Below, in pieces: positions 22,860 through 63,316 of a stretch of 64,000 bases of DNA. Each line of letters opens with the position of its first letter. Position 1 is the stretch's first letter. The translations under genes were made by a program, and so were the position numbers. Location: positions 86,125 to 150,124 of the forward strand of contig CAYZFD010000001.1 of NCBI GenBank assembly GCA_964477735.1, written 5' to 3'. Origin of the DNA: an uncultured Flavobacteriaceae bacterium (GTDB lineage: Bacteria > Bacteroidota > Bacteroidia > Flavobacteriales > Flavobacteriaceae). The notes under the pieces were generated by a model that was given only the letters and a program-made list of their open reading frames with translations, searched no databases and was not told where the DNA came from.

Positions 22860-22873
22860 TGTAATCGATTACT
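22860..22873. promoter_or_regulatory. LacI-type operator candidate, site 1 (TGTAATCGATTACT)
   Basis: It matches 13 of 14 positions of the palindrome TGTAATCGATTACA. It lies 76 nt upstream of the ATG of the giant pectinesterase gene. Confidence 0.55.
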
Positions 22874-27934: not shown

Positions 27935-27956
27935 GTTGAATTTTTAAACACAGAAA

Positions 27957-28841: not shown

Positions 28842-28864
28842 TCAAGCAGTTTATTAATTTTAAC

Positions 28865-28912
28865 ACACCTAATCTATCGAGCAAAGATGCTTTTTAGGTT
28901 AGGTGTTTTTTC
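28865..28912 (+). terminator. Weak candidate terminator after the PorP/SprF gene
   Basis: An 8-bp stem acacctaa / ttaggtgt (28865..28872 with 28899..28906) is followed by tttttt. The loop is long (26 nt), so confidence is low. Confidence 0.3.
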
Positions 28913-28921
28913 CCGCTTAAC

Positions 28922-30724: not shown

Positions 30725-30744
30725 TATCTTTGCAATCGATTACT
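30725..30744 (+). promoter_or_regulatory. -7 box TATCTTTG overlapping LacI-type operator candidate, site 2 (TGCAATCGATTACT)
   Basis: TATCTTTG (30725..30732) matches the Bacteroidota TAnnTTTG consensus. The operator lies at 30731..30744, and the kduI ATG is at 30758. Confidence 0.55.
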
Positions 30745-31594: not shown

Positions 31595-31596
31595 TC

Positions 31597-33788: not shown

Positions 33789-33818
33789 CATTACATCAAC
33801 CAAACAAAACACACCCTA

Positions 33819-34859
33819 ATGAATAAAGTAGTCACATTTGGAGAAATTATGCTTAGACTTTCTCCTTCAGGTTTTTTAAGATTCTCTCAAGCAGACAATT
33901 TCGATGTTGTTTATGGCGGTGGGGAGTCTAACGTAGCCGTATCTTTAGCCAATTATAACGTTCCAGTTGAGTTCGTTACTCGACTGCCCAAAAATGACAT
34001 TGGTCAATGTGCCATGATGGAAATGCGAAAAAGAGGGGTAGGCGTTTCTCACATTGCCTATGGCGGAGACCGCTTGGGGATTTATTTTTTAGAAACCGGT
34101 GCTGTTTCTCGGGGGAGCAAAGTGGTCTATGATCGTGCTCACTCAGCAATGGCAGAAATAAAACCTGGAATGATCGATTGGAAAACGGTTTTTAAAGGAG
34201 CCAATTGGTTCCACTGGACAGGGATCACTCCAGCCATTTCTCAAGGCTCAGCCGATGCTTGTTTAGAAGCCGTTAAAGTAGCCAGTGAGATGGGAATTAC
34301 CATTTCAACAGACTTAAATTACCGAGCAAAACTTTGGAATTATGGTGGTGATCGTGAAAAAATCATGACCGAACTCACCAATCATTGCGACATTATTTTG
34401 GGCAACGAAGAAGATGCCGAAAAACATTTTGGAATAAAACCCGAAGGCCTAGACATTACCACACAAGGAGAACACGTGAAAGCAGAAGCTTTCTTGTCTG
34501 TATGTAAACAGATGATGAAAAAATTCCCTAAGGCCAAAAAAGTAATCACAACATTAAGGGGCTCAATTTCCGCATCTCACAACACTTGGGCAGGGGTTTT
34601 GTATGATGGCAAAACCATGTACAAATCAGCACAATACCAAATCACCGATATCGTTGATCGTGTGGGTGGTGGTGATTCCTTTATGGGTGGACTTATTTAC
34701 GGACTTTTGGCCTACCAAAACGACGATCAAAAAGCATTAGATTTTGCCGTTGCGGCCTCATGCCTTAAACACACAATCAAAGGCGACGCCAATTTGGCAA
34801 CAATAGACGAGGTTGAAAAATTAATGGGCGGTGATGCCTCTGGTAGGGTAGCCCGATAA
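33819..34859 (+). CDS. kdgK: 2-dehydro-3-deoxygluconokinase (PfkB family)
   Basis: 346-aa ORF with N-terminal VVTFGEIMLRLSP, GGGESNVAVSLA and C-terminal DRVGGGDSFMGGLIY. Confidence 0.85.
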   Translation: MNKVVTFGEIMLRLSPSGFLRFSQADNFDVVYGGGESNVAVSLANYNVPVEFVTRLPKNDIGQCAMMEMRKRGVGVSHIAYGGDRLGIYFLETGAVSRGSKVVYDRAHSAMAEIKPGMIDWKTVFKGANWFHWTGITPAISQGSADACLEAVKVASEMGITISTDLNYRAKLWNYGGDREKIMTELTNHCDIILGNEEDAEKHFGIKPEGLDITTQGEHVKAEAFLSVCKQMMKKFPKAKKVITTLRGSISASHNTWAGVLYDGKTMYKSAQYQITDIVDRVGGGDSFMGGLIYGLLAYQNDDQKALDFAVAASCLKHTIKGDANLATIDEVEKLMGGDASGRVAR

Positions 34860-34870
34860 AAATTAAGAAA

Positions 34871-35539
34871 ATGAGTCAGTATTCAAGATTAGAAGTCGCC
34901 CAAGCCATGAAAAAAACAGGTCTTGTGCCTTTGTTTTTTCATGCAGATATAGAGGTAAGTAAAAACGTTCTAAAAGCTTGCTATGAAGGGGGCGCTCGAT
35001 TGTTAGAGTTCACTGCAAGAGGTGATTTTGCCCATGAAATTTTCGGAGCTCTAAACAAATATGCATTAAAAGAATTGCCAGGGATGATTCTGGGCGTTGG
35101 CTCAGTGACAGATGCTGCGCAAGCCTCATTATATATGGCTTTGGGGGCAAACTTTGTCGTGACCCCAGTGTTGAGAGAAGATATTTCTTTGGCTTGCAAT
35201 AGAAGAAAGGTTCTTTGGTCTTCGGGATGTGGATCCTTATCGGAAATAGCACGCGCCGAAGAATTGGGGTGTGAAGTTGTGAAGCTATTCCCTGGGGATG
35301 TATATGGGCCCAATTTTGTTAAGGGCATCAAAGGGCCTCAGCCTTGGACAAGCATTATGCCAACAGGAGGGGTCTCCCCTGAAGAATCTAACCTTCGAGC
35401 CTGGTTCGATGCTGGAGTAATTTGTGTGGGAATGGGATCTAAATTACTCACCAAAGAAATTATTTCGAATGGACAATACGATAAGTTACGTGAAGATGTT
35501 GCCCAAACCCTAAAGCTCATTGAAAAAGTTAGAACATAA
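34871..35539 (+). CDS. eda: KDPG / 4-hydroxy-2-oxoglutarate aldolase
   Basis: 222-aa ORF with LEFTARG, VKLFPG and PTGGVSP motifs. It follows kdgK. Confidence 0.85.
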   Translation: MSQYSRLEVAQAMKKTGLVPLFFHADIEVSKNVLKACYEGGARLLEFTARGDFAHEIFGALNKYALKELPGMILGVGSVTDAAQASLYMALGANFVVTPVLREDISLACNRRKVLWSSGCGSLSEIARAEELGCEVVKLFPGDVYGPNFVKGIKGPQPWTSIMPTGGVSPEESNLRAWFDAGVICVGMGSKLLTKEIISNGQYDKLREDVAQTLKLIEKVRT

Positions 35540-35618
35540 TCGTATTAAATATCGAAAATGAAATTTCTCGCCGTTTTTGCGAGGTGAAGCATCGCTTTGA
35601 AGGCTACAAACAAATGAC

Positions 35619-36593
35619 ATGAGATTGATGAAAAAAGGATTGTTTTTATTGAGTTTTATTACACTAATGGCTTGCACCACTTCTAGTGGCGTGAAAACAA
35701 TTCGGCTGGGCCATGGACTAGACACTAACCATTCGGTGCACAAAGCGATGGTGAAGATGGGTGAAGAGTTGGCCAAATTGTCTAAGGGCAAAATGCAAAT
35801 TAAAATTTATCCCAACCAACAATTAGGGTCTGAGCGCGAATGTTTGGAATTGCTCCAAATAGGCAGTTTAGACATCACCAAAGTTTCTGCGGGTGTGATG
35901 GAAAATTTTTCGCCCAACATGAAAGTTTTTGGACTTCCCTATTTGTTTAGAGATAAAGCACATGCCTATAGCGTGATGGACGGATCAATCGGCAAAAAAT
36001 TACTAAACGAAACCTTGCAGTTTCGCATTAAGGGCCTTGCTTATTACGACGCTGGAAGCCGGAGTTTCTATACCAAAAGCAAACCTGTTCACAATCCGTC
36101 AGACCTTGAAGGGCTCAAGATTAGGGTAATGGAAAGTGTAACGGCCATGAAAATGGTTGAAAGTATGGGGGGTTCACCAACGCCCATTTCTTGGGGAGAG
36201 CTCTACACCTCACTTCAGCAAGAAGTCGTGGATGGGGCCGAAAACAATCCCCCAAGTTTCTATTTGTCAAAACAATTTGAGGTTTGTAAATATTATACCC
36301 TCGATGAACACACCACTCTCCCTGATGTATTGGTGGGAAGCTCCTATCTATGGGAATCGCTAACGACTCAAGAAAAAGCTTGGTTGGAAGAAGCAGTGTC
36401 TATTTCTGTGGCCTATCAAAGAGAACTTTGGGCGGCCTCGGAAGCAGAATCGCTTAGTGCGCTTGAAAAAGCAGGGGTCGAGATTATTTACCCCGACAAA
36501 ACTCAATTTTCTAAAACAGTTCAGCCTGTTTACGATATGTTTAGTGCCAACGAAAGCATCAATAACCTTGTTTTGGCCATTCAAAATCAATAA
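35619..36593 (+). CDS. TRAP transporter substrate-binding protein (DctP family), probable uronate binder
   Basis: 324-aa ORF with lipobox-like LMACT and a DctP-like body (LGSERECLELLQIGSLDITKVS, GLKIRVMES). The true start is possibly the second ATG at 35628. Confidence 0.8.
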   Translation: MRLMKKGLFLLSFITLMACTTSSGVKTIRLGHGLDTNHSVHKAMVKMGEELAKLSKGKMQIKIYPNQQLGSERECLELLQIGSLDITKVSAGVMENFSPNMKVFGLPYLFRDKAHAYSVMDGSIGKKLLNETLQFRIKGLAYYDAGSRSFYTKSKPVHNPSDLEGLKIRVMESVTAMKMVESMGGSPTPISWGELYTSLQQEVVDGAENNPPSFYLSKQFEVCKYYTLDEHTTLPDVLVGSSYLWESLTTQEKAWLEEAVSISVAYQRELWAASEAESLSALEKAGVEIIYPDKTQFSKTVQPVYDMFSANESINNLVLAIQNQ

Positions 36594-36599
36594 GTTTAT

Positions 36600-37067
36600 A
36601 TGAATAATGTGCAACAAAAACTCGATAGAACTTTAGAATATATTTTGGTGATTTTATTGGCCGTTATGGTCATTAACGTCAGTTGGCAAGTCTTTTCTAG
36701 ATATGTGCTCGAAAATCCAAGTTCTTTTACCGATGAGCTGGCCAGATATTTAATGATTTGGCTTGGCGTTTTGGGAACTGCCTATGTTTCGGGAAAAAGA
36801 CTGCACGTAGCCATAAACATATTGCCAGAACGCCTAGATGATAAAGGCCAAAAAAAATTAAACAACATTATTCATAGTATTATCATTTTGTTTGCCATAA
36901 GTGTTTTTATCATTGGTGGAAGCCGATTGGTTTACTTAAGTTTTGTTTTAGGACAGAAATCTGCAGCACTTCAAATTCCGCTTTATTTGGTCTATCTGTG
37001 TATTCCTATTAGTGGCCTTTGTATTGTGTTTTACAAACTATGTGATCTCATTAAAAAAGAAGTGTAA
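36600..37067 (+). CDS. TRAP transporter small permease (DctQ family)
   Basis: 155-aa ORF with four hydrophobic segments and FSRYVLENPSSFTDELARYLMIWL, typical of DctQ. Confidence 0.8.
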   Translation: MNNVQQKLDRTLEYILVILLAVMVINVSWQVFSRYVLENPSSFTDELARYLMIWLGVLGTAYVSGKRLHVAINILPERLDDKGQKKLNNIIHSIIILFAISVFIIGGSRLVYLSFVLGQKSAALQIPLYLVYLCIPISGLCIVFYKLCDLIKKEV

Positions 37068-38362
37068 TGGAATATTTATCAGTTGGCATCTTGCTTTTAA
37101 GCTTTTTAGTCTTATTGTCTATTGGAACCCCTGTGGCGTGGAGCATCACCATTTCTTCTGTTTTTACGCTCATTGTAAGTGTTCCTGCTTTGCCTGCACT
37201 CACCACAATTGCACAAAGAATGGGAACAGGGATCGATAGTTTTGCCTTGTTGGCCATTCCGTTTTTTATCCTCTCTGGTGAACTGATGAACAAAGGAGGC
37301 ATTGCCCACCGATTGGTGGCCTTTGCCAAAGCACTGGTTGGATTTTTGCCTGGGGGCCTTGCACTGATTAATATCATTTCGGCCATGCTCATGGGTGCTG
37401 TTGCGGGCTCTGCCATGGCTTCTGCTTCGGCCATGGGGAGTATTCTCGGACCAGAAATGGAAAAGGAAGGCTACCCCAAGGGTTTTGGAGTGGCTGTAAA
37501 TATAACATCGGCCACTACGGGTTTAATTATTCCACCCAGTAATGTTTTAATCGTTTATTCCCTAGCCAGTGGTGGGGCTTCAATCGCAGCCTTGTTTTTA
37601 GCAGGGTATATCCCTGGAATTATCACTGGATTATTCTTAATGATTGTGGCCATGGTTTGGGCCAAAAAGAACAAATTCAAAACAGGAAAAAGAGCACCTT
37701 TATCTGTTGTAGCCAAAACTTTTGTCCACGCTTTTCCTAGTCTGATGCTGCTTGTGGTGGTCATAGGTGGTATTGTATCAGGAGTATTCACCGCAACAGA
37801 GGCGTCAGCAGTAGCCGTAATTTATACCCTTATTCTTGGTTTTGCCTACAAAGAAATTAATGTGAAAAGCCTTTTTGGAATTTTGTTAAATGCGAGCTCA
37901 ACAACAGCCATTGTAATGTTTTTAATTGCAGCTTCGATGAGCATGTCATGGGTATTGTCCTACGAAAACATTCCCGAAATGATTAGTCATAGTTTGATTT
38001 CTTTGAGTGACAATAAAATCGTTATTCTTTTAATGATAAACCTAATATTATTGTTCGTAGGAATTTTTATGGACATGACACCTGCTGTCCTTATTTTCAC
38101 GCCCATATTTCTTCCTGTTGTGACCCAACTTGGCATGGACCCAGTTCATTTTGGAATGATCATGGTATTAAACCTTTGCATTGGGCTATGTACACCTCCT
38201 GTTGGAAGTGTGTTGTTTGTGGGGATCGGCGTAGCCAAAACAACCATACAAAAAGTGATTAGACCTTTGCTTCCGCTATTTATTGCCATGATTTTTGCTT
38301 TGATGTTGGTAACCTATATCCCAGCACTTTCCCTTTGGTTACCATCTCTGTTTAATTTATAA
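37067..38362 (+). CDS. TRAP transporter large permease (DctM family)
   Basis: 431-aa polytopic ORF. Its start overlaps the dctQ-like stop by 1 nt. Confidence 0.85.
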   Translation: MEYLSVGILLLSFLVLLSIGTPVAWSITISSVFTLIVSVPALPALTTIAQRMGTGIDSFALLAIPFFILSGELMNKGGIAHRLVAFAKALVGFLPGGLALINIISAMLMGAVAGSAMASASAMGSILGPEMEKEGYPKGFGVAVNITSATTGLIIPPSNVLIVYSLASGGASIAALFLAGYIPGIITGLFLMIVAMVWAKKNKFKTGKRAPLSVVAKTFVHAFPSLMLLVVVIGGIVSGVFTATEASAVAVIYTLILGFAYKEINVKSLFGILLNASSTTAIVMFLIAASMSMSWVLSYENIPEMISHSLISLSDNKIVILLMINLILLFVGIFMDMTPAVLIFTPIFLPVVTQLGMDPVHFGMIMVLNLCIGLCTPPVGSVLFVGIGVAKTTIQKVIRPLLPLFIAMIFALMLVTYIPALSLWLPSLFNL

Positions 38363-38373
38363 TTCTCAACAAC

Positions 38374-39822
38374 TTGAAACCACTCAATAGACTAAATGTC
38401 GAAACCACATCAAACCTACCCATCAAAATCATACAATTTGGGGAGGGAAACTTTCTAAGGGCTTTTGTAGATTATGCAATCGATCAACTCAACGCCAAAA
38501 CAGATTTTTCTGGGGCTGTTGCCGTTGTGCAACCCATCATTCATGGCATGGTTGATGTCTTAGATAAGCAAGATGGCCTATATACGTTGTTTTTAAAAGG
38601 AATTTCGAACGGTGAAATTATTGAACAGCATCATTTGGTAACAGCTGTTCAACAAAGCATCAATCCGTTTGAAGACTTCGAAAGTTTTCGTCAATTGGCA
38701 CTACTTGACTCCCTTGAATTTGTGTTCTCAAATACCACAGAGGCTGGGATAGTTTTTGATGAAAATGATCAATATGATTCGGTTCCTCCAAACACTTTTC
38801 CAGCCAAACTCACCTATTTTTTACACCAACGCTATAAACATTTTTCTGGTGATGTTTCTAAAGGACTCCACATTATCCCATGCGAGTTAATCAATTACAA
38901 TGCCGATAAACTTAAAACTTGCATACTTCAATATGCATCGTTGTGGTCATTAGATTCAGGATTTTCGAATTGGGTTGAACAGGCCAATAGTTTTCACAAC
39001 ACTTTGGTGGACAGAATTGTTCCTGGCTACCCAAGAGAGCAAGTGAGCGAATACACCAAATTGTTGGGTTATGAAGATCAATTGATGGTGAGTGCCGAAA
39101 ATTTCTTCTTATGGGTTATCGAAGGGGATCAAGCTTTGAAAAGCAAATTACCCTTCGAAAAAACTGCCCTAGATGTTAAATTCGTACCTTCGATTCAGCC
39201 CTACCGAACACGAAAAGTTAGAGTTCTAAATGGCATACACACAGCCATGGTGCCACTTTGCTATTTGCATGGCCACAGAACAGTCAGAGAATCTATTGAT
39301 GACCCTTTCACTTTTGAGTTTATTAAAACATTGGCTTTCAACGAAATTGTGCCTAGTGTGGATTTAGACAAAAATGAAATGGAACAATACACCCTCGAGG
39401 TATTTGATCGTTTCAGAAATCCTTTTGTTGTGCATAAACTAGAGAGCATTGCTTTAAATTCAATTTCAAAATTTTCTGTCAGAGTACTCCCCACTATGCT
39501 TTCTTACAGGGAAAAGTTTAATAAAATTCCACAAAATTGCGCCTTGTCCTTTGCTGCATTATTGTTATTCTATAAAGGAAATTGGAACGAGCGAGCGCTT
39601 CCTGTACAAGACGATGAAGCTGTTGTAAACTTTTTCGTACAGCTGTGGAAAGAAAACCCCACAAACGTTGTGGTTGAAAAAGCATTGGCTAATGACACCT
39701 TTTGGGGCGAAGACCTCACCAAAATCGAAGGTCTAGCCCATCAAGTGACGCATTGGCTTTCTTTATTGGAAAATCAAGGAACCACCGTGGCCATACAACA
39801 ATGTTTAGCACAAACAAAATGA
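38374..39822 (+). CDS. uxaB: Tagaturonate reductase (altronate oxidoreductase)
   Basis: 482-aa ORF with a TTG start. Its N-terminus (M)KPLNRLN...IKIIQFGEGNFLRAF parallels E. coli UxaB MKTLNR...IIQFGEGNFLRAF, which supports the TTG. Confidence 0.9.
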   Translation: MKPLNRLNVETTSNLPIKIIQFGEGNFLRAFVDYAIDQLNAKTDFSGAVAVVQPIIHGMVDVLDKQDGLYTLFLKGISNGEIIEQHHLVTAVQQSINPFEDFESFRQLALLDSLEFVFSNTTEAGIVFDENDQYDSVPPNTFPAKLTYFLHQRYKHFSGDVSKGLHIIPCELINYNADKLKTCILQYASLWSLDSGFSNWVEQANSFHNTLVDRIVPGYPREQVSEYTKLLGYEDQLMVSAENFFLWVIEGDQALKSKLPFEKTALDVKFVPSIQPYRTRKVRVLNGIHTAMVPLCYLHGHRTVRESIDDPFTFEFIKTLAFNEIVPSVDLDKNEMEQYTLEVFDRFRNPFVVHKLESIALNSISKFSVRVLPTMLSYREKFNKIPQNCALSFAALLLFYKGNWNERALPVQDDEAVVNFFVQLWKENPTNVVVEKALANDTFWGEDLTKIEGLAHQVTHWLSLLENQGTTVAIQQCLAQTK

Positions 39823-41429
39823 TGAAAAGTCCAATTTTGCAACTCGAGGCCACCGATAATGTAGTAGTGGCTCTAGAAAATCTTACAGCAGGAACCACGG
39901 TGACTACAGAGGGGTTTTCCATTGAGGTTAAAGAAAACATAAAAGCCAAACACAAAATGGCACTTCATGACTTTAACATTGGCGACGCCATTGTTATGTA
40001 TGGTTTGCTGGTTGGTAAAGCAACAGAGCACATAGCTGCTGGAACGGCACTTCACGTGGACAATGTGAAACATAGTAAAAGTGAAGCCGCTATTCTAGAC
40101 ACCAATTATCAATGGACATCACCCAATATCACTGCCTGGCAAAACCGAACTTTTATGGGTTATCACAGAGCCGATGGACAGGTTGGTACAGAAAATGTAT
40201 GGCTTTTCTTTCCACTGGTTTTTTGTGAAAACAAAAATATTGAGGCCCTTAAAGAGGTTTTTGAGAAAGAGTTAGGAATTTCGTCCGAAATGGAGCTTAG
40301 AAATTATTTTCGCTCGTTGATTGGAGGTCGTGAAGAAACCCATGTAGAGCCAAAAGCAAATCCTATACTTTCCAATATATCACTAAGGTTTTTAACCCAC
40401 CAGGGCGGATGTGGGGGCACTCGCGAAGATGCTGTTATGTTGGCCAAGCTGCTTGCAGGTTATGTCAATAATCCCAATGTGGCAGGGGTCACTGTACTTA
40501 GTTTAGGATGCCAAAACCTACAAGTTGAGATTTTCAAGAAAGCACTGCATGACATCAATCCAAACATTGAAAAACCTGTTTTGATTTTTGACCAACAAGA
40601 GTCGGGGAATAATGACAAAATGATGCAAAAAATCATTGCAGAAACTTTTGAAGCCTTGAAAACAGCCAATAATATCGTTCGTCAGCCCGCACCGCTATCT
40701 AAACTTAGTGTTGGGTTAGAGTGTGGAGGTTCTGATGGTTTTTCGGGGATTTCGGCAAACCCTGTTTTGGGGCGCGTGAGTGATATTTTGGTGGCCTTAA
40801 AAGGCAAAGCTATTCTTGCAGAATTTCCTGAACTATGTGGTGTTGAACAAAACTTAATTGACCGCTGCGTTAAGCCTCAATCAGCGCATAGATTTTTGGA
40901 ACTCATGAAAGCCTTCGAAGCTTCGGCCATAAAAGCAGGCTCTGGTTTTGATATGAACCCATCTCCAGGGAACATCAAAGATGGCCTAATTACAGATGCG
41001 ATGAAAAGTGCTGGTGCTGCTAAAAAAGGAGGTACCGCGCCCATCGTTAATGTGGCAGACTATGCTGAATATTGTAACGAAGAGGGACTACACCTGCTCT
41101 GCACGCCAGGAAATGATGTTGAAAGCACTACGGCCTTGGCCGCATCGGGCACCAACATTATTTTGTTTACAACAGGATTGGGAACACCTACTGGCAACCC
41201 TGTTGTGCCAGTCATAAAAGTATCTTCGAACAGTCACCTTTTTGAAAAAATGGGCGATATAATTGACTTTGATGCAGGAACTGTTATTACAGGGAATGAA
41301 AGTCTAGAAGAGGCTGCCGACCGTTTGTTAAACTACATTGTTGACGTGGCTAGTGGCCACTCCACAACAAAAGCTGTTCAGAATAAACAATATGATTTTA
41401 TCCCTTGGAAAAGAGGGGTGTCGCTTTAG
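39819..41429 (+). CDS. uxaA: Altronate dehydratase
   Basis: The ORF track begins at 39702 inside uxaB. The ATG at 39819 (ATGA overlap with the uxaB stop) gives 536 aa starting MMKSPILQLEATDNVVVAL (SAF domain). Later motifs include GLECGGSDGFSG and LLCTPGND. Confidence 0.9.
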   Translation: MMKSPILQLEATDNVVVALENLTAGTTVTTEGFSIEVKENIKAKHKMALHDFNIGDAIVMYGLLVGKATEHIAAGTALHVDNVKHSKSEAAILDTNYQWTSPNITAWQNRTFMGYHRADGQVGTENVWLFFPLVFCENKNIEALKEVFEKELGISSEMELRNYFRSLIGGREETHVEPKANPILSNISLRFLTHQGGCGGTREDAVMLAKLLAGYVNNPNVAGVTVLSLGCQNLQVEIFKKALHDINPNIEKPVLIFDQQESGNNDKMMQKIIAETFEALKTANNIVRQPAPLSKLSVGLECGGSDGFSGISANPVLGRVSDILVALKGKAILAEFPELCGVEQNLIDRCVKPQSAHRFLELMKAFEASAIKAGSGFDMNPSPGNIKDGLITDAMKSAGAAKKGGTAPIVNVADYAEYCNEEGLHLLCTPGNDVESTTALAASGTNIILFTTGLGTPTGNPVVPVIKVSSNSHLFEKMGDIIDFDAGTVITGNESLEEAADRLLNYIVDVASGHSTTKAVQNKQYDFIPWKRGVSL

Positions 41430-42448
41430 GACTTAAGAATTTGTGATGACTTTCGAACGAGTAGTTCTGGCTTGAGCTTGGCTGATTGTTCTAAAACAAC
41501 ATCTTTATTGTTCACTTTTTCCAAAAATATTCTTGCAGCACTTTCACCCATCACAATGGGGTTTTGTTCGATAGAAGTAATGGAGAGCTCGAGCAAACTG
41601 GTAAAAGGTTCGTTACTAAATCCTACAACAGCAATTTCATCGGGAATTCTTACCTTAAGACTTTGTAAATGCTGAATTACACCCAAGGCCACATAGTCAG
41701 AAGAACAAAAAACAGCATTAGGGATTTTAGGTAAATTCAATATTTTTTTGGCAACCTTTTTTCCAGAGGCGATATCACTTGTGGCCTCGAAAACCAATTC
41801 TTTGTCAAAAGGGATGTTGTTGTTGCCCAGTGTAGATTTGTAACCGTCAAATCTATTTTTGTAAATCCCTAACTTTAAATCTCCTGAGACGAAGGCAATT
41901 CTTTTTCTATTTTGATCAATAAGATGTTGAGTACCCAAAATCCCTCCCGTATAATCATCAAGCGTAATAGAACTTGTGCCTGGGGTGTCGAACTTTCGGT
42001 CAAAAAATATTAGGGGCGTGCCACTATTGACCACTTTTCGAAAATGAGCGTCACTTGTTGTTTTTTTGGACAATGAAATGATGATGCCATCAACTTGATT
42101 GTTGAGCAAGGTTTCAATAATCTCCTCTTCTCTTTTTTCTGATTCGTTGGTTTGAAAAATCATAACTTGATATCCTTTTGGATACAAAGTTTCCTCTACA
42201 CCTCTAATCACATTAGAGAAAAAATGGCGGTTGATGGTGGGCACTACCAACCCAACCACGTAGGTCTGCCCACTTTTGAGTGCCAAGGCATGCTTGTTTT
42301 TGTTGTAATTTAACTCTTCAGCAGTTTTCAGAACCAGTTTACGTGTTTTCTCACTAATCAATTTACTGTTGTTTAGTGCTCTAGAAACGGTCGCTGCCGT
42401 GATGTTCAGTTTTGAAGCAATGTCATAAATGGTTGCTTTCTTACTCAT
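41426..42448 (-). CDS. LacI-family transcriptional regulator (candidate pectin-locus repressor)
   Basis: 340-aa ORF with N-terminal HTH ATIYDIASKLNITAATVSRALNN and a periplasmic-binding-protein-like sugar-binding body. It is divergent from the susC-like gene. Confidence 0.9.
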   Translation of the reverse strand: MSKKATIYDIASKLNITAATVSRALNNSKLISEKTRKLVLKTAEELNYNKNKHALALKSGQTYVVGLVVPTINRHFFSNVIRGVEETLYPKGYQVMIFQTNESEKREEEIIETLLNNQVDGIIISLSKKTTSDAHFRKVVNSGTPLIFFDRKFDTPGTSSITLDDYTGGILGTQHLIDQNRKRIAFVSGDLKLGIYKNRFDGYKSTLGNNNIPFDKELVFEATSDIASGKKVAKKILNLPKIPNAVFCSSDYVALGVIQHLQSLKVRIPDEIAVVGFSNEPFTSLLELSITSIEQNPIVMGESAARIFLEKVNNKDVVLEQSAKLKPELLVRKSSQILKS

Positions 42449-42515
42449 TTATATTTTTTAGTTGTCAATTCCTCAAAATTATGAATAATTATTTTGGTAT
42501 ATGGGAAAATTTTAA

Positions 42516-42537
42516 TAATATTGTGTAATCGATTACA
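42516..42537. promoter_or_regulatory. -7-like box TAATATTG abutting a perfect LacI-type operator palindrome, site 3 (TGTAATCGATTACA)
   Basis: The perfect 14-bp palindrome lies at 42524..42537, in the 108-bp gap between the regulator start (42448) and the susC-like ATG (42557). TAATATTG at 42516..42523 is one mismatch from TAnnTTTG. Confidence 0.65.
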
Positions 42538-42556: not shown

Positions 42557-45500
42557 ATGAAAAATTTATGTGAAAACTTATTATTCAAGCGGTTCCATGC
42601 TGCGAAGCACATGGTTGTCTTGTTTATCTTTTTTGCTTTTCATTTGGCCTCTGCACAACAGTCTGTTTCGGGCGTTGTATCAGATGAAGCAAGTGGAGCG
42701 CCTTTGGCGGGGGTCACCGTCGTAGAAAAGGGCACAAACAATGGTGTGGTTTCAGATTTTGATGGAAATTTCACCATTCGCGTCGCATCCAGCAATGCGG
42801 TTTTAACGTTCTCTTATTTGGGCTACAAAACCGTTGAACAAAGTGCTGGAAATGGTGCGCAACTCAACGTAACCATGTCAGAAGACTTCGAAACCCTAGA
42901 TGAGGTTGTTGTGGTTGACTATGGTTATGGAAAAGTGAGAAAAGAGAACATGACAGGTTCTGTTGCCAGTATTTCAAGCAAGGAGCTCGCCAACATTCCT
43001 GTTTCAAGTGCGGCCGAAGCTTTGTCTGGTCGTTTGCCAGGGGTAAAGGTTACAACTTCTGATGGTGAGCCTGGTGCTGAAATTACCATTCGTGTTCGTG
43101 GAGGGGGATCTATCACACAAGACAACTCTCCCCTCTATGTTGTTGATGGGTTCATTGTGAGCTCTATCAGTGACATTCCGCCCACAGATATTTTGTCTAT
43201 CGACGTACTAAAGGATGCTGCAGCTACAGCTGTATATGGTGCACAGGCTTCAAACGGGGTTGTGGTGATCACCACCAAGAGTCCCTCAGAGGGCAAGGTA
43301 GAAGTCGCCTACAACAACTTTTTTCAATTTAACACACTTCCCGAAGATAGAAGATATGAGGTGTTATCCCCTTATGAATTTGTGTTGGCCAACTATGAGT
43401 ATTCACTCCTAAAAGGGGCTACTGATTTGCAAAGATTTGAAAGATTTTTCGGAGTTTATGATGATTTAGATCTCTACAAATCCAAGCAAGGAACCGACTG
43501 GCAAGATGAACTCTTTGGAGGGCCAAGAATGTCTGCGTTTCATAATTTCACTGTGAGCGGTGGTACAGAAATGACAAAGATGAGATTGAGTGTTTCGAAA
43601 AACCAAGATGAAGGTTTGTTAGAGGGCTCAGCATATGACCGTACCGCCATTAACTTTAAGGTCAATCAAAAAATTAGTGAGAAGTTAATTTTGGATGTTT
43701 CTACACGTCTAACTTCTACTCAAATTGATGGGGCTGGTACTTCCACCAATGCTCAGCTTAAAATTAAAGATGCTGTTCAAACCCGACCTGTGAACGGGAT
43801 TGCCGATGAGCTTGACATTGATTTAACGAACATCAATTCTGATGACGATTTTCAGTCCTTTTTGCTCAGCCTTGTGAACCCTAAAGAGTTGGTGAAACAA
43901 GACTGGAGACAACGCAATGACAAGGATTACATCATAAATGCAAGCTTGTCTTGGAATGTAACCGATGATTTAACTTTTAAAACTTCTTACACCAACAACA
44001 GACGTTTTAGAGAAGATCTACGTTTTTATGGGCCTCTTACAAGTGAGTCTTACCAAAACGGAGGGAGCATGCCTTTGGGTAAAAAGACCAATACCGACTA
44101 TGAGTCCTACAGGCTGATTAACACCCTTAACTTTAGAAAGGAATGGGGAAAAAACAAATTTGACGCACTGATTGGTAATGAAATTTCATCAAGTGGTGGG
44201 AAAGAGTTTTTCTTAAGAGCCGAAGATTTTCGTTTGTCCATAACACCCGAAGAACTTTTTGCTAACATGGCCTTTGGTCGTGCCGATCAACACTACACAA
44301 GAGATTTTACCAATTCTAACAGAGAATCTTATTTTGGGCGTTTAGACTATCAATTCAACAACCTTATTGTTCTAACAGGAACCTTCCGTGCCGATCAATC
44401 GAGTCGTTTCTCGAAAGAAAATCGTTTAGGATTCTTCCCCGCAGGAGCACTAGCCGTTAAACTCGATAAATTGGAATTTTTCAAAAGCCTAGGCTTTATT
44501 GACCAATTGAAAGTACGTTTAACATATGGTGAAACAGGTAACGACCGAATTGATGCCACCGCAACGCAATTCTTGTTTAGCGCAACTACTGATAGAGGGG
44601 TAGGATTTAACAATTACTTCAATGTCTATTACACCCCAAGCAGCTCTGCTTTGTATAACCCCGATTTGGTTTGGGAAACAACAGCCAGTGCCAACCTAGG
44701 GCTTGACTTTGGATTGTTTAACAACAGAATTAGAGGGTCTTTAGATGTTTATCAGAACACGACAAGAGATCTTCTATTGCAGTCTGCCATCCCAAACAAT
44801 ACTGGATTTAATACGCAGTGGAACAATGTAGGATCTACCCAAAACCAAGGTTTTGAATTGGGGTTAAATGCAGCACTTGTCCGCAATGATAATTTCAATA
44901 TGTCATTAGACTTTAATATTGGTAAAAACGATTTCAGAATAGTTGAGCTTGATGGCACAACCGAAAGATTCGAACGTTCAAATTGGGCAAGTACAGACCT
45001 TAATAACATCAACGATTACTACCTTCAGCTCGGAGGAAGAGTTGGTGATATTTATGGATATGTAACCGATGGATATTATGCCACTTCAGACTTTGCTTCA
45101 TACGACGCTTCCTCTGATAAATATACACTCAATGCCGATGTGCCTTCATCTGGAGCAGTTGTAGGAAACATCAACGTAAGACCAGGATTCTTAAAATTAA
45201 AAGACCTCAATGGTGATGGTGCTATTAATGCTGATGACAGAACAGTTATCGGAAATGCAACTCCAGATTTCCAAGGTGGTTTTGGATTGAATCTTAACTT
45301 TAAAAACTTTGACTTGTCATCGTTCTTCAACTTCCAAGTTGGAAATGAAGTGTATAACACAGGAAAGATTCAATATAACCAATTTAGAAGGGTTACTTTC
45401 GGCAATATGCTAAACACCATGAACATGGCGAATCGCTTTAGTTATTTAGATGTTGATGGAACCTATACTGGAACTGCTGGAGGTTTAGTGACCGATCTTG

Positions 45501-45838
45501 ATGATTTGGCCGCGATGAACCAAGGCAAAACCATGTGGTCGCATGCAAGTCACGGAATCGCTGGTGCAGTGATTCACTCTTGGGCTGTTGAAGACGGATC
45601 TTTCATAAGGTTGAACAACCTTACCCTGGGATATACCTTGCCTCAAACCCTATCCTCAAAGTTCGGAGTTTCTAGGTTAAGAATGTTTGCAACAGGTCGA
45701 AACCTAAAAATCTGGACAAATTATTCAGGTTATGACCCTGAAGTTGACAACATCAAAAACCCATTAACCCCTGGGGTTGACTACTCTTCTTTCCCAAGAA
45801 GTCGTTCTTATACAATTGGTCTAAACATTACTTTTTAA
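42557..45838 (+). CDS. SusC/RagA-family TonB-linked outer-membrane transporter
   Basis: The ORF track starts at a TTG at 42494. The ATG at 42557 gives MKNLCENLL... (1093 aa). It has a CarboxypepD_reg-like VSGVVSDEASGAPLAGVTVVEKGTNNGVVSDFDGNFTI, a plug region and a C-terminal ...YTIGLNITF. Confidence 0.95.
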   Translation: MKNLCENLLFKRFHAAKHMVVLFIFFAFHLASAQQSVSGVVSDEASGAPLAGVTVVEKGTNNGVVSDFDGNFTIRVASSNAVLTFSYLGYKTVEQSAGNGAQLNVTMSEDFETLDEVVVVDYGYGKVRKENMTGSVASISSKELANIPVSSAAEALSGRLPGVKVTTSDGEPGAEITIRVRGGGSITQDNSPLYVVDGFIVSSISDIPPTDILSIDVLKDAAATAVYGAQASNGVVVITTKSPSEGKVEVAYNNFFQFNTLPEDRRYEVLSPYEFVLANYEYSLLKGATDLQRFERFFGVYDDLDLYKSKQGTDWQDELFGGPRMSAFHNFTVSGGTEMTKMRLSVSKNQDEGLLEGSAYDRTAINFKVNQKISEKLILDVSTRLTSTQIDGAGTSTNAQLKIKDAVQTRPVNGIADELDIDLTNINSDDDFQSFLLSLVNPKELVKQDWRQRNDKDYIINASLSWNVTDDLTFKTSYTNNRRFREDLRFYGPLTSESYQNGGSMPLGKKTNTDYESYRLINTLNFRKEWGKNKFDALIGNEISSSGGKEFFLRAEDFRLSITPEELFANMAFGRADQHYTRDFTNSNRESYFGRLDYQFNNLIVLTGTFRADQSSRFSKENRLGFFPAGALAVKLDKLEFFKSLGFIDQLKVRLTYGETGNDRIDATATQFLFSATTDRGVGFNNYFNVYYTPSSSALYNPDLVWETTASANLGLDFGLFNNRIRGSLDVYQNTTRDLLLQSAIPNNTGFNTQWNNVGSTQNQGFELGLNAALVRNDNFNMSLDFNIGKNDFRIVELDGTTERFERSNWASTDLNNINDYYLQLGGRVGDIYGYVTDGYYATSDFASYDASSDKYTLNADVPSSGAVVGNINVRPGFLKLKDLNGDGAINADDRTVIGNATPDFQGGFGLNLNFKNFDLSSFFNFQVGNEVYNTGKIQYNQFRRVTFGNMLNTMNMANRFSYLDVDGTYTGTAGGLVTDLDDLAAMNQGKTMWSHASHGIAGAVIHSWAVEDGSFIRLNNLTLGYTLPQTLSSKFGVSRLRMFATGRNLKIWTNYSGYDPEVDNIKNPLTPGVDYSSFPRSRSYTIGLNITF

Positions 45839-45841
45839 TCC

Positions 45842-47674
45842 ATGAAAACACTAAAAAACATTATTGTAAAATCAACATTCATCATCGGTGCAAGCTTGAT
45901 GTTGAGTTCTTGTGAAAAGGATTTTCTTGATCCTGCATCACTTTCTACATTCGACAAAAACTTCGTGTTTTCTAACGTTGATGATGCACGAAATGCCGTA
46001 AACGCCATTTACTCACACTTCAATCAAGATGCTTTCAGGTCACGTTTATCGAATAACATGACAGGAAACACAGACATTGAGCATTCATCAGGATGGACTT
46101 CCGACGGAGACAGATACCAAATTTGGCGCCTAGATGCGGTGACTTCAAACCGTGATTTAGACATTGTTTGGACCTATGCTTTTAGAGCCATCCGAGACGC
46201 CAATATTGCCATTGAGGGGATTAACGCCAGCGGAAATCTAGAAGCCAACGATGCTGTGACCCGAAACACTTTTAATCATTTGTTGGGAGAAGCACACACG
46301 CTCAGAGCCTATTGGTATAGCATGCTATGCTACTTCTTTGGTGATGTACCCTATGTGACCTCTGCTCCTGTTGCAGGAGGTAATTTTTTACTTCCCAAAA
46401 CAGACCGCAATGAAATTCTTTCTGCTGAAATTGAGGCCCTAAAAAGTGTTGAAGAAAACATGCAATGGGCCGATCAACTGCGATATGGAGTTGAGCAAGT
46501 GAACAGAGAATATACCCTAGGTATGATTGCAAGATTAGCCCTTCAAAGAGGGGGCTATTTTCTTAAGCCAGACCTTACTCTAGACCGTGCTTCAGACTTT
46601 GCAGATTATTATCAAGTTGCACATACCTATACCAAAAAGTTAATCGACAACAAAGACAGAGAACTTCCAACAGATTTTCGTCAAATTTTCATGAATTTAC
46701 ACAAGTTCATCAAGCCGGTTAATGAAGAAATTCTTTTCGAAGTGCCCTTCCCCATTGGAAGTGGTGATGTAGCCTGGAATATTGGTATTGATGTGGTGGG
46801 TGGTGCCAACGCTAGCCACGACTATGGCTCTGGTAATAACTACATGAAAATGCCATTGACCTATTTCCTTTCTTTTGATTCTAAAGACCTTCGAAGAGAA
46901 GTCACTTGTGGATTATACCGCATTGATGAGAATTTTGAATATGACTGGATTACAAGAGGAATTTCTCAAGGAAAATTTGGCCGCCATTGGCTAGACAATC
47001 CTCCTGGGAAATCAACCGCAAAAGGAACCGGAATTAACTGGCCCATGCTAAGATATGCCGATATTTTGCTCATGTTTGCAGAAGCAGAAAACGAACTTAA
47101 CGGTCCAACTGCTGCTGCAAAAGAGGCCCTCACCAGAGTACGTAAAAGAGCCTTTGATGCTGCCGACTGGACGGATAAAGTTGATCAGTATGTGACCAAC
47201 GTTTCCAGTTCAAAAGCCGATTTCTTTAACGCCATTGTTGACGAAAGAGCATGGGAGTTTGGTGGTGAAATGATTCGTAAATACGAACTCATTCGATGGG
47301 GACTTTATGATGATAAGGTAGAAGCCACAGTTCAAGGCCTTAAAGATTTGGCCGATAAAATAGACACTGCAGCCACCTACGATCTCCCTGATTACATCTA
47401 TTGGAGAGTGAATGGAAGTGGTGAGTTTGAAGTGTACAATCCTGATTTTTATGTAGCAGCAGCTCCCGACGAAACCTGGAATAGACAATCTTTTGTTGCC
47501 GGGTTATGGAATAGCTCCACCTCAAACTATCAAGATTATATTCTTAGAGACTGGGAAAACCATCTATCGCCCTCTTGGGGAGGTGATTTCCCTCGCTATA
47601 TATTCCCAATTCCAACTTCAGCAGTTGAAGCTAGTCAAGGGACACTTAAAAACGATGGTTACCAATTTAATTAA
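45842..47674 (+). CDS. SusD/RagB-family nutrient-binding outer-membrane lipoprotein
   Basis: 610-aa ORF with lipobox LMLSSC followed by EKDFLD and a TPR-like helical body (RAYWYSML, LRYADILLMFAEAENELNG, ERAWEFGGE). It lies 3 nt after the susC-like gene. Confidence 0.95.
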   Translation: MKTLKNIIVKSTFIIGASLMLSSCEKDFLDPASLSTFDKNFVFSNVDDARNAVNAIYSHFNQDAFRSRLSNNMTGNTDIEHSSGWTSDGDRYQIWRLDAVTSNRDLDIVWTYAFRAIRDANIAIEGINASGNLEANDAVTRNTFNHLLGEAHTLRAYWYSMLCYFFGDVPYVTSAPVAGGNFLLPKTDRNEILSAEIEALKSVEENMQWADQLRYGVEQVNREYTLGMIARLALQRGGYFLKPDLTLDRASDFADYYQVAHTYTKKLIDNKDRELPTDFRQIFMNLHKFIKPVNEEILFEVPFPIGSGDVAWNIGIDVVGGANASHDYGSGNNYMKMPLTYFLSFDSKDLRREVTCGLYRIDENFEYDWITRGISQGKFGRHWLDNPPGKSTAKGTGINWPMLRYADILLMFAEAENELNGPTAAAKEALTRVRKRAFDAADWTDKVDQYVTNVSSSKADFFNAIVDERAWEFGGEMIRKYELIRWGLYDDKVEATVQGLKDLADKIDTAATYDLPDYIYWRVNGSGEFEVYNPDFYVAAAPDETWNRQSFVAGLWNSSTSNYQDYILRDWENHLSPSWGGDFPRYIFPIPTSAVEASQGTLKNDGYQFN

Positions 47675-49338
47675 TGCCTATCACAATGAAAAAACATAAC
47701 ATTATTTTACAAAATCTTAAGCTTTTTACCTTCTTGTTATTAGGGGTGTTGGCTTTTATCGGATGCGAAAAAGACGAGGCTACCTCCGAAGAACAAGTTC
47801 GGATGTTTCGCCCTGTTTTAAATGAAGATTTGTTTGCAGAAGGCAATCATATTATTGTCAATATGGGCAAACTAAAATCTGCCATAAGCTACTACATCGA
47901 GGTGAGTAGAGACAGTTTTGCTACCGTTGATTACCAAATTTCATCGGACACCAATTATGTCAGAATCAACAACGATCTTATTGGGGAAGATCTTTTCTGG
48001 AACGCACTTTACCAAGTGAGAGGAAAAGCAGTGCACGCAGACGCTAATTTTGATAGTAAATTATCAGACTTTGGATCTGTTAGAACAGAAAAGTTTCCGA
48101 GTATCTTATACTCTCCAGTCTCCTATGACATGATTGACGTTGCTGCTCGTATGAGATGGCAATTGTTGGGTGCTGCAGTAACGCATGTAAAAGTCTATGC
48201 CGCAGACGACCTGAAACTCAAAACTCCGTTGGCTGTTGTAGAAGTTCCTACCGCTGACCAAGCCGCTGGCCAAACCATTGTGGGGGGATTAAACCCCCTA
48301 ACAACCTATCAGTTGGCCATCTTTAGTGGGGAAACTTTGAGAGGTTGGGAAAACTATACGACGATCGCCGCTGATATTGACCCCACTGCAGCCAATGTGG
48401 TTGACCTCAGAGAATCCACCTCGACTTCAGACCTTCAAACGGCCATGGCTTCTGCTGCAGAAGGCGCTATTTTGTTGGTGAGCCATGGTTCAGAACATAT
48501 AATCGATGCGCCATCGCCTGTGAGCTCTTCCTTTACGGTTCGTGCAGCGCTTGGGTTTGGCCCTCAAAAAGCAAAAGTAGTCATGCCTGCCAACTTAGAC
48601 TTGGCCAGCGGTGCTACTGTAGATCACATTCGTTTCGTGAATCTTGAACTTAGAGGTACAGATTGGGGTGCAAAATATGTAATGAACGTCAGTCAGCCCG
48701 GAACCATCAATGAAGTGAGATTCGACAATTGTTTTATCACCAACCACAGAGGTGTATTTAGAATTAAAACAAATGGCGTTACCCTCGACAAATACATCAT
48801 TAACGAGTCTATTGTGGATAGTATTGGTTCATATGCTGTGGTTACGCAAGATAAAAATGGAAGTGTGCTGAATCATATTGAATTCACTAAGAGTACGTTC
48901 AACCACTTACAGTATTATTTTATTGTATCTAGAAACAATTCAGAAACCATCAACATTGAAGATTGTACCATAGCAAACGCTACAGATGGAAGAGAGTTAT
49001 TTAGATATCGTGAGGCTGGCTTAGATCAAGTTACGGGTGGAATCAATATTTCAAACACCATTTTAGGCCGTCGATGGGATTACAAAAATGAAGAATTATA
49101 CGGTGTGAAGGGTATTCAAGGACTGGATCAAACGGTATTCAATGTGTCCAATTGTTTTTCAACAACCGATTTAGTTTGGGATGGAGACAATTCAATACCA
49201 AACTTCCCGCTAGGAAATGCTGGCGCCACCCAAGAAGAACTTTGGGTTGATCCTGACAGCGGTGATTTTAATTTTGAAGACAAAGGCTTCATTGGAAAAT
49301 CATCTGCAGGAGATCCAAGATGGAGAGTTCAATTATAA
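47674..49338 (+). CDS. PUL-encoded surface lipoprotein of unknown function (SusE-position; DUF4957/DUF5123-like)
   Basis: 554-aa ORF with lipobox AFIGC followed by EKDEATSEE. It has an FN3-like N-terminal part, beta-helix-like repeats and ends in AGDPRWRVQL. Its start overlaps the susD-like stop. Confidence 0.6.
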   Translation: MPITMKKHNIILQNLKLFTFLLLGVLAFIGCEKDEATSEEQVRMFRPVLNEDLFAEGNHIIVNMGKLKSAISYYIEVSRDSFATVDYQISSDTNYVRINNDLIGEDLFWNALYQVRGKAVHADANFDSKLSDFGSVRTEKFPSILYSPVSYDMIDVAARMRWQLLGAAVTHVKVYAADDLKLKTPLAVVEVPTADQAAGQTIVGGLNPLTTYQLAIFSGETLRGWENYTTIAADIDPTAANVVDLRESTSTSDLQTAMASAAEGAILLVSHGSEHIIDAPSPVSSSFTVRAALGFGPQKAKVVMPANLDLASGATVDHIRFVNLELRGTDWGAKYVMNVSQPGTINEVRFDNCFITNHRGVFRIKTNGVTLDKYIINESIVDSIGSYAVVTQDKNGSVLNHIEFTKSTFNHLQYYFIVSRNNSETINIEDCTIANATDGRELFRYREAGLDQVTGGINISNTILGRRWDYKNEELYGVKGIQGLDQTVFNVSNCFSTTDLVWDGDNSIPNFPLGNAGATQEELWVDPDSGDFNFEDKGFIGKSSAGDPRWRVQL

Positions 49339-49360
49339 ATCAATTCGTAATATCATTCAA

Positions 49361-49395
49361 ACAAGGCGTTTTTTCTAAGGCGCCTTGTTTTTGTT
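49361..49395 (+). terminator. Intra-locus rho-independent terminator/attenuator after the susC-susD-lipoprotein unit
   Basis: An 8-bp stem acaaggcg / cgccttgt (49361..49368 with 49381..49388) is followed by tttttgttt. It lies only about 10 nt before the PL1 ATG at 49406. Confidence 0.6.
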
Positions 49396-49405
49396 TAATC
49401 TCACC

Positions 49406-50950
49406 ATGAAAAAACACCTATTTCTATTTGTTTTCTTGACCCTTTCTTTTTTAGGAAGTTGTGCAACAGAAAACCCAATTCAACTACCCCAACAATCACA
49501 AAACTCAGACAACTCTGATGACAGCAGTGACAATTCTTCCACTACTGACAACAGCAACACCGGTGGTGACAACTCCACTAGTGACCAGCCAGTACAATCA
49601 AGCGACGAAACTAAAGCTTTTCCGTCTGCTGAGGGTTTTGGAATGAATACTACTGGAGGGCGTGGTGGAAAGGTCTTGTTTGTGACCAATCTCAACGATG
49701 ATGGAGCAGGAAGTTTTAGACGTGCCATAAACACAAGTGGCGCCCGATATATTTTGTTTAAAGTATCAGGCACCATTCAATTAAAATCATCACTTTCGGT
49801 TAACATAGGAAACCTCACCATTGCTGGACAAACGGCCCCTGGAGATGGGATTTGCATTGCTGGATATCCTTTTTCAATTAATGCCGACAATGTGATCATT
49901 CGTTTTATGAGATTTAGGCTGGGAGACATCAATAATGTAGAGGCTGATGGTCTTGAGTCGAGGTTTCACAAAAACATTATTATAGACCATTGCTCTGTAA
50001 GTTGGTCAGTTGATGAATGCCTGTCTTTTTATGGCAATGAAAACACAACCATTCAGTGGACTTTTGTTACTGAAAGCTTGCGATCTTCTGTACATTCCAA
50101 AGGTAACCATGGTTATGGAGGTATTTGGGGCGGTAAATACGCCAGTTTTCATCACAACTTAATTGCGCATCACGACAGTCGAAATCCAAGGCTTGGCGAA
50201 CCAGCAGGAGATGTTTTTGCCCTAACCGATTTGGTTGACTTAAGAAACAACGTCATCTACAATTGGGGAGGCAATAGTGCCTATGGTGGCGAAGCCATGA
50301 ACGTGAATATTGTCAATTGTTATTACAAACCAGGCCCGGCATCAAAAAACACGAGTCGCATCATTTCTATCGATAAAAATACGGACAGCTCTACGCCCAT
50401 TTACAACAAATGGGGAAAATACTATATTAGAGGAAATGTTATGGAAGGCAATGCCTCGGTCACAAACAACAACTGGAAGTATGGAGTAGAAAATCAGTTT
50501 AACAGCAAGTATGGCACTTTAACCCAGTCTGAACTTGATCAAATCAACATTAGTGAACCACACAACATTAACAACAATGTGGTTACGCATACTGCCCAAG
50601 AAGCCTACGAAAAAGTGTTGGAAGTGGGAGGCGCTTCATTGGCTAGAGACGTTAACGACAAACGAATTGTTCGTGAAGTCGAAAACAAAAACTACACTTT
50701 CAGCGGATCTGCTGGAAGCACGAATGGTTTGATTGACTCGCAGAAAGATGTGGGCGGTTGGCCAGCTTTAAACAGTGCAACATATCCCACAGACAGTTCA
50801 GGTGATGGCATGCCAGATGCTTGGAAAGAAAGCATGAAATTATCGGTTTCTGCAAACAACCCCAACGGAAATGAGCTAAGCACTGCGTACGATAACATCG
50901 AAGTTTATATCAACAGTTTGGTTAAAGAAATTGTAGAAAAACAAAAGTAG
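49406..50950 (+). CDS. Pectate lyase, PL1 family, lipoprotein with Ser/Asp/Asn-rich linker
   Basis: The ATG at 49406 gives MKKHLFLFVFLTLSFLGSC (lipobox), 514 aa. Motifs are AFPSAEGFGMNTTGGRGGKVLFVTNLNDDGAGSFRRAI, IIIDHCSVSWSVDE and SRNPRLG. A low-complexity linker lies at 49490..49609. Confidence 0.85.
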   Translation: MKKHLFLFVFLTLSFLGSCATENPIQLPQQSQNSDNSDDSSDNSSTTDNSNTGGDNSTSDQPVQSSDETKAFPSAEGFGMNTTGGRGGKVLFVTNLNDDGAGSFRRAINTSGARYILFKVSGTIQLKSSLSVNIGNLTIAGQTAPGDGICIAGYPFSINADNVIIRFMRFRLGDINNVEADGLESRFHKNIIIDHCSVSWSVDECLSFYGNENTTIQWTFVTESLRSSVHSKGNHGYGGIWGGKYASFHHNLIAHHDSRNPRLGEPAGDVFALTDLVDLRNNVIYNWGGNSAYGGEAMNVNIVNCYYKPGPASKNTSRIISIDKNTDSSTPIYNKWGKYYIRGNVMEGNASVTNNNWKYGVENQFNSKYGTLTQSELDQINISEPHNINNNVVTHTAQEAYEKVLEVGGASLARDVNDKRIVREVENKNYTFSGSAGSTNGLIDSQKDVGGWPALNSATYPTDSSGDGMPDAWKESMKLSVSANNPNGNELSTAYDNIEVYINSLVKEIVEKQK

Positions 50951-50951
50951 C

Positions 50952-52265: not shown

Positions 52266-52275
52266 GCAATAGAAT

Positions 52276-54611: not shown

Positions 54612-54612
54612 C

Positions 54613-55854: not shown

Positions 55855-55859
55855 ACAAA

Positions 55860-60176: not shown

Positions 60177-60185
60177 ATTCATCAC

Positions 60186-62324: not shown

Positions 62325-62326
62325 AA

Positions 62327-63302: not shown

Positions 63303-63316
63303 TGTAATCGATTTCA
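63303..63316. promoter_or_regulatory. LacI-type operator candidate, site 4 (TGTAATCGATTTCA)
   Basis: It matches 13 of 14 positions of the palindrome. It lies 38 nt upstream of the minus-strand start codon at 63265. Confidence 0.55.

Follow-up and report, generated by a model that had tools for sequence, protein, structure and literature searches.

The 14-bp palindrome TGTAATCGATTACA between a LacI-family gene and susC in a flavobacterial pectin locus, together with its copies (consensus nGyAATCGATTrCn), very likely serves as the operator through which the LacI-family protein of the locus (41426-42448) represses at least five pectin and uronate promoters. This reading of regulator, operator and pectin regulon was the core of the original prediction for the 64-kb stretch of DNA analyzed here (the window), and it is upheld by a weight-matrix scan of the genome, by conservation of the sites in related genomes, by co-variation of the motif with the recognition helix of the regulator and by the phase of the sites with the -7 promoter box, each of which, like the motif itself, was directly observed.

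The Pectin Locus and Its LacI-Type Regulator

By its gene content, the locus is a flavobacterial pectin utilization locus joined to a kduI-to-uxaA catabolic operon with a TRAP transporter, and is arranged in four transcription units (Table 1). The third, a 16-gene susC/D enzyme operon whose two PL1 lyases are PelZ-like, encodes SusC (CarboxypepD_reg, Plug and barrel), then SusD_RagB, and then linked CAZymes (PL1-like, GH28, GH105, GH43, and CE8), the gene order expected of a PUL. In the fourth unit, the PaeX-like esterase gene is accompanied by a gene for a GFO/IDH/MocA oxidoreductase (60945-62324, minus strand), which matches the BT_2158 glycoside 3-dehydrogenase family weakly (E 3.6e-11, far under the cut-off). 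Small Cys-rich ORFs occur on both sides of the locus, both on the plus strand: 63427-63609 encodes a 60-aa CDGSH iron-sulfur protein (PF09360, E 1.1e-10) and 22352-22546 a 64-aa zinc-ribbon-like protein. The remainder of the window holds housekeeping genes and an RND efflux operon (8709-15328, minus strand; OEP, membrane-fusion protein, AcrB, and a TetR regulator) unrelated to the pectin regulon. Among all window ORFs of at least 100 aa, the only regulators found were this TetR (14639-15328) and the LacI-family protein. As predicted, no hybrid two-component or ECF/anti-sigma gene is present in the window, and these control genes of the Bacteroides-type pectin PUL were found neither in nor beside the locus.

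The HTH domain of the regulator (PF00356, residues 6-51) was detected with E 3.1e-13 and 49.7 bits against a cut-off of 27, and its recognition helix reads ITAATVSRALN. The hinge NKHALALKSG aligns with NRVAQQLAGK of LacI and SAVARSLKVN of PurR, the LacI and PurR reference sequences of the hinge and helix alignment being approximate, and the Leu column is kept in all groups; this Leu is presumably the lever residue (LacI L56/PurR L54). The effector core, which is similar to periplasmic binding proteins, matches PF00532 (E 6.4e-30) and PF13377 (E 4.5e-27). The closest solved structure is CcpA (3oqo, E 6.5e-47), PurR and RbsR are also full-length matches, and the protein scores under every cut-off of the NCBIfam equivalogs. 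Because it aligns end to end with the dimeric CcpA and PurR and lacks the C-terminal tetramerization tail of LacI type, one dimer per operator may be expected. Its nearest homologs are found in uncultured marine Flavobacteriaceae MAGs and single-cell genomes.

Putative Operators and Promoters in the Window

The palindrome is perfect over its 14 bp at 42524-42537 and is directly abutted on its 5′-side by the -7-like box, both as originally described. A search with up to two mismatches recovered the three near-copies that had been listed, at 22860, 30731, and 63303, and all four sites proved to be intergenic and 5′ of a transcription unit. The statement that the AATCGATT core occurs elsewhere only once also held: the window contains five cores, namely the four sites and 231-238, a copy without the TG/CA flanks (AAAATCGATTTG) inside the ORF of a TonB receptor. 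The divergent lacI-susC spacer measures 109 bp, not 108 (ATGs at 42448 for lacI and 42558 for susC), and the search returned a fifth match absent from the original prediction, TGTATTCGATTTCA at 56169, which lies in the GH43 coding region, scores 10.7 and is treated as chance.

The window sites are even palindromes with a central CG; in the LacI family, operators are typically even palindromes with this center, 30-140 nt 5′ of the start codon (PMC4052901). A hairpin or terminator was rejected as a reading of the palindrome, which is perfect over 14 bp, loop-free and located at promoters. A wider palindrome was discarded as well, as the flanks past 14 bp show AT-richness and the -7 box signal only in an analysis in which positions 2-13 were preset by the search pattern. 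The neighboring LacI-type repressor very probably binds at this palindrome. The site at 63303, which has the esterase gene on one side and the CDGSH gene on the other, is the least supported of the four, because PaeX-like esterase orthologs in five genomes have no positionally conserved proximal site matching it; it also scores below the lowest training site of the matrix (18.8).

Table 1. Putative operators, promoter elements, regulator and transcription units of the pectin locus (window coordinates), with the -7 box of the site on contig C94.
Feature	Position	Strand	Sequence or products	Details
Putative operator, susC	42524..42537		TGTAATCGATTACA	lacI-susC spacer, on susC promoter; matrix score 24.4, joint genome top
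Putative operator, kduI	30731..30744		TGCAATCGATTACT	14 nt 5′ of kduI ATG; score 20.4
Putative operator, giant CE8	22860..22873		TGTAATCGATTACT	76 nt 5′ of giant CE8/T9SS gene (ATG 22949); score 21.6
Putative operator, esterase (weaker)	63303..63316		TGTAATCGATTTCA	38 nt 5′ of PaeX-like pectin acetylesterase gene (minus strand); score 17.8
Candidate susC -7 box	42516..42523	+	TAATATTG	7/8 to TAnnTTTG; abuts operator
susC -33 element	42493-42496	+	TTTG	19 nt upstream of -7 box
kduI -7 box	30725..30732	+	TATCTTTG	perfect; operator overlaps by 2 nt
Giant CE8 box	22877-22884		TATATTTA	operator in spacer between TTTG and box
C94 (PL1) -7 box			TATATTTG	perfect; operator 9 nt 3′ of box
Best lacI -7 box candidate	42474..42481	-	TAATTTTG	26 nt before ATG, 42 nt from operator
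LacI-family regulator	41426..42448	-	340 aa	Pfam PF00356, PF00532, PF13377
Transcription unit 1	22949..30643	+	CE8 giant T9SS cargo, PorP/SprF, PL9 pectate lyase	
CE8 pectinesterase	22949-27934	+	1675 aa, type-B T9SS tail	Pfam/NCBIfam
PorP/SprF, then PL9 lyase	27957-30643	+		Pfam/NCBIfam
Transcription unit 2	30758..41429	+	kduI-kduD-uxaC-kdgK-eda-dctPQM (TRAP)-uxaB-uxaA	
Transcription unit 3	42558..60959	+	susC-susD-DUF5123 lipoprotein-two PL1-like-GH28-DUF4861-GH105-GH43-GDSL-CE-CE8-GDSL	
Transcription unit 4	60945..63265	-	PaeX-like pectin acetylesterase, GFO/IDH/MocA oxidoreductase	

According to the consensus cited in PMC7641319, promoters of Bacteroidota combine a -33 TTTG with a -7 TAnnTTTG. 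Perfect TAnnTTTG boxes lie within 40 nt of the 39 sites from all genomes in 17 cases, 16 of which end 0-2 nt from the operator start, and the abutting layout of box and operator at susC is found also in relatives. Since the operator is fixed in phase with the -7 box, a bound repressor would cover the transcription start and repress sterically.

In the following scheme, four elements are inferred from sequence: binding itself, the direction of regulation, the inducer and the dimer stoichiometry. One regulator dimer would occupy each operator, its two recognition helices reading the TGTAAT half-sites and its hinge-helix leucines being inserted at the central CpG. The bound dimer would span approximately -4 to +10, the classic position for steric repression, and block RNA polymerase. 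The regulated set would comprise the secreted CE8 and PL9 enzymes, kduI-to-uxaA with the TRAP transporter, the susC/D operon, the acetylesterase unit, and the PL1 lyase of contig C94. A cytoplasmic breakdown product of pectin, imported via the TRAP transporter, would release the repressor; because only monomers are expected to reach the cytoplasm by this route, galacturonate, 5-keto-4-deoxyuronate, and KDG are the candidate inducers. It is improbable that the LacI protein binds the same sites with another logic, requiring a co-repressor as PurR does or acting as an activator at some promoters. Ligand logic is not readable from sequence, PurR-type co-repression does occur in the LacI family (PMC4052901), and the lacI-proximal sites of relatives are not beside a -7 box; however, operators that lie on or abut the -7 box, over the start site, are consistent with repression, and for catabolic regulators of the LacI type, release by the substrate is the rule (PMC4052901).

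Autoregulation by the LacI-family repressor, also part of the original prediction, is not evident in this genome, where the lone spacer site is on the susC promoter and off the predicted lacI promoter. The lacI-divergent spacer of relatives usually contains two sites about 158-185 bp apart (L110, L114, L115, L116, L032, L091, and L126-L131), a strong one at the -7 box of the divergent gene and a weaker one of the TGTTATCGATTrCC type (TGTTATCGAT) 60-80 nt before the lacI ATG. Autoregulation is plausible in these relatives, and in the streamlined genome of the window the two-site spacer appears to have been reduced to a single site within 109 bp.

Conservation and Co-Variation with the Regulator

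Homologs 49-54% identical to the regulator are encoded in the genomes G015 (two copies), G059, G046, G073, G054, and G023, and in G030, which represents another family. The motif lies 5′ of kduI in six genomes other than that of the window (G015, G030, G073, G059, G054, and G046) and in the divergent lacI/uxaC-TRAP spacer in G023. Within this group it is found also before pectin susC, GH28, PL9, PL1, other T9SS lyase and giant CE8 genes; the giant CE8 ortholog of G073, 53% identical, has the site CGTAATCGATTACA. Sites near lacI are present in every genome of the group except G030, whose site is at kduI, and are likewise absent from ten orthologs of family f7. In a wider sampling of the order, all of 11 further orthologs of family f1, from three more genera, have one to three sites scoring at least 18 upstream of lacI. 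Counts with up to one mismatch in five genomes were 6, 4, 3, 9, and 2, against 1, 1, 1, 2, and 1 for a reversed-pattern control. On this evidence, the motif appears to be common to regulator orthologs in about ten genera of the Flavobacteriaceae and in one further family.

In the closest relatives (62-64% identical; L041-L048, marine MAGs and SAGs), the site is TGyAATCCATTACA with a central CC/GG at 8/8 loci; it lies partly over a perfect -7 box, 7 nt 5′ of kduI, and the sequence upstream of lacI is TGCAATGGATTGCA (e.g., L042, 2923 and 4079). The center of the motif is therefore not fixed, and a non-CG center is a known minority case in the LacI family (PMC4052901).

The half-sites change together with the recognition helix. 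In G061 (L062), G064 (L081), and G043 (L064), the LacI protein encoded next to kduI shows 39-40% identity, and TACAATCGATTGTA is the site at kduI. The helix of this second group reads I(D/N)(S/P)STVSRALN, as against ITAATVSRALN in the group of the window, with the hinge Leu kept in both; the differing positions are presumably equivalent to Y17 and Q18 of LacI. Genomes with a best homolog of 38-44% identity and neither LacI type beside kduI have no such site 5′ of kduI. The TACAAT group thus appears to be a natural specificity switch, in which S/P-S replaces A-A in the helix. Co-variation of motif and regulator is the standard comparative-genomics criterion for motif assignment (PMC4052901, PMC3878776), and by the pattern found here the motif is assigned to this regulator.

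The same observations bear on whether a different factor, a global catabolite regulator of the CcpA/cre or Crp type, binds the sites while the LacI gene is a bystander. The exact 14-mer is present in a paper on Staphylococcus aureus CcpA cre sites, the closest solved structure of the regulator is that of CcpA, and a Crp-like global sugar regulon was predicted in Bacteroides by Ravcheev et al. (2013) (PMC3878776). Likeness to cre is, however, expected, because CcpA is a LacI-family protein. Such a bystander role is very improbable: the top sites of the genome are restricted to pectin/uronate genes, the motif variant goes with the orthologous group of LacI and with its recognition helix, and the motif adjoins the lacI ortholog itself in about ten genera.

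Genome-Wide Specificity

The original prediction had proposed a weight-matrix scan of the whole genome in which intergenic and coding matches are counted. The matrix was derived from 32 sites of other genomes only, so that circularity was avoided, and was run over the whole 1.83-Mb assembly (110 contigs, 87% complete, 40% GC), of which approximately 93% is inside ORFs of at least 100 aa and approximately 7% outside. The outcome bore the prediction out: the top five scores (24.4, 24.4, 21.6, 20.4, and 17.8) belong to the four window sites and one on contig C94, all of them intergenic (5/5) and adjoining pectin genes, whereas matches scoring 16.3 or less are almost all coding.

With up to one mismatch, the whole assembly contains four sites, every one intergenic and pectin-linked: three lie in the window, and the fourth, at C94:1523, is perfect. 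The C94 site is flanked by the genes for a RhaT-like permease and a secreted PL1 multidomain lyase. The same arrangement, with its own operator, is found in G046, where the permease is 78% and the PL1 protein (a 926-aa PL1-domain protein) 55% identical. Given this C94 site and its G046-like arrangement, at least five promoters are counted in the partial genome; the proposed regulon of the locus stands, but not its size of four promoters, the fifth being on contig C94. Matches with two mismatches at C1:7984 and on C22, C30, C65, and C68 are all coding and were not counted, nor was the one at C9:15144, an intergenic match that has no CG and a score of 10.2.

That the palindromes arose by chance, or belong to AT-rich promoters without having a regulatory role, as a structural or restriction-site-related repeat would, has next to no probability left even though the genome is AT-rich, look-alikes with three mismatches number 121 in the assembly and control counts equal or exceed motif counts in some genomes, for this reading is effectively refuted by the shuffles (five matches with up to two mismatches in the window against a mean of 0.25 in 100 dinucleotide-preserving shuffles, 0/100 of which gave five), by the genome scan with its exclusively intergenic and pectin-linked matches at up to one mismatch, and by the ortholog sites, which are conserved at orthologous promoters across genera despite otherwise unalignable spacers.

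A second pectin-like locus, with susC, susD, two PL1-like genes, DUF6298, and GH28, is located on contig C5 (G000, 23700-39500). Between its PL1 and DUF6298 genes, just 5′ of the likely DUF6298 start, lies a hybrid site, TGTAATCGATTGTA (C5:29873), which was demoted to a weak candidate in view of its score of 15.6 and of the lack of an adjoining -7 box and of a site 5′ of the susC of that locus. The matrix scan detected no strong operator 5′ of the C5 susC. Control by the regulator therefore does not extend to every pectin gene, and the C5 locus is probably under different control.

Relation to Known Systems and Significance

Regulons of the LacI-family proteins KdgR, UxaR, UxuR, and UxmR for uronates have been predicted in Bacteroides by Ravcheev et al. 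(PMC3878776, PMC4052901). As judged from their description, KdgR, UxaR, and UxuR resemble the present regulator in that they are one-component LacI proteins of the same phylum, encoded beside uxaA, uxaB, uxaC, kdgK, and kdgA, and have palindromic sites through which they are predicted to govern the catabolism of galacturonate, glucuronate and KDG; one part of the Bacteroides regulon supplement contains no KdgR/UxaR sites. They differ in that three or four paralogs act on small catabolic operons and pectin loci are under hybrid two-component systems, whereas here the catabolic operon, the SusC/D locus and the enzymes secreted by the T9SS would all be under one regulator. Moreover, annotations of flavobacterial pectin loci routinely include LacI genes (PMC5306329). 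The departure from the Bacteroides pectin paradigm that had been pointed out is therefore real but not new, given the LacI control of uronate genes already predicted (PMC3878776) and these flavobacterial annotations.

AusR of Zobellia galactanivorans, a member of the GntR/FadR family, is the sole flavobacterial case in which operators at the -7 box have been dissected by experiment (PMC7641319). Like the regulator studied here, it belongs to the uronic-acid polysaccharide system of a marine flavobacterium and is a cytoplasmic one-component repressor with TAnnTTTG-linked operators that is released by degradation products, but it is of another protein family, its operators are TKGTN2-3ACMA pairs and its substrate is alginate. 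With LacI, PurR, CcpA, and RbsR, the regulator shares the domain architecture, the hinge Leu, an even palindrome with a central CG and an operator over the core promoter or start, and the window 14-mer fits the TGnAAnCGnTTnCA pattern of classical LacI/GalR repressors. Unlike in the latter, the promoter is of the Bacteroidota -33/-7 type, and conservation is confined to a short core of 12-14 bp, the flanks being AT-rich only. KdgR of Dickeya and Pectobacterium belongs to the IclR family and ExuR/UxuR of enterobacteria to the GntR family; these proteins repress pectinase, kduI/kduD, kdgK, and uxa genes, and repression is relieved by KDG or uronate intermediates. Their role is the same, but the families and operators are unrelated, so that the likeness is one of analogy only.

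Most knowledge of PUL regulation comes from gut Bacteroides, in which hybrid two-component systems dominate. In flavobacteria, PUL regulation has been experimentally worked out in very few cases (PMC7641319). The literature searched contained no description of the motif in Flavobacteriia, the exact string being found only in the S. aureus CcpA paper. Conceptually, the system is a standard LacI-type sugar regulon, well supported and of an ordinary kind. Tentatively, and with somewhat less than an even chance of being right, it may be regarded as an uncatalogued Flavobacteriaceae-wide pectin regulon in which one LacI repressor governs functions from T9SS esterases and lyases and SusC/D to KDPG aldolase, with an operator phase-locked to the end of the -7 box and with natural specificity switches (TGTAAT/AA versus TACAAT/SS or PS; CG versus CC in the streamlined pelagic clade).

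If the proposed regulon is real, a cytoplasmic sensor of monomers governs outer-membrane and secreted functions, and the specificity variants provide a ready-made recognition-code series. As a compact pair suited to the -33/-7 promoter, repressor and operator would be a genetic tool for Bacteroidota. An operator shared across genera would also allow pectin- and uronate-responsive genes to be predicted in marine genomes, MAGs and metagenomes, including unannotated ones such as those for DUF4861, DUF5123, DUF6298, and the GFO oxidoreductase.
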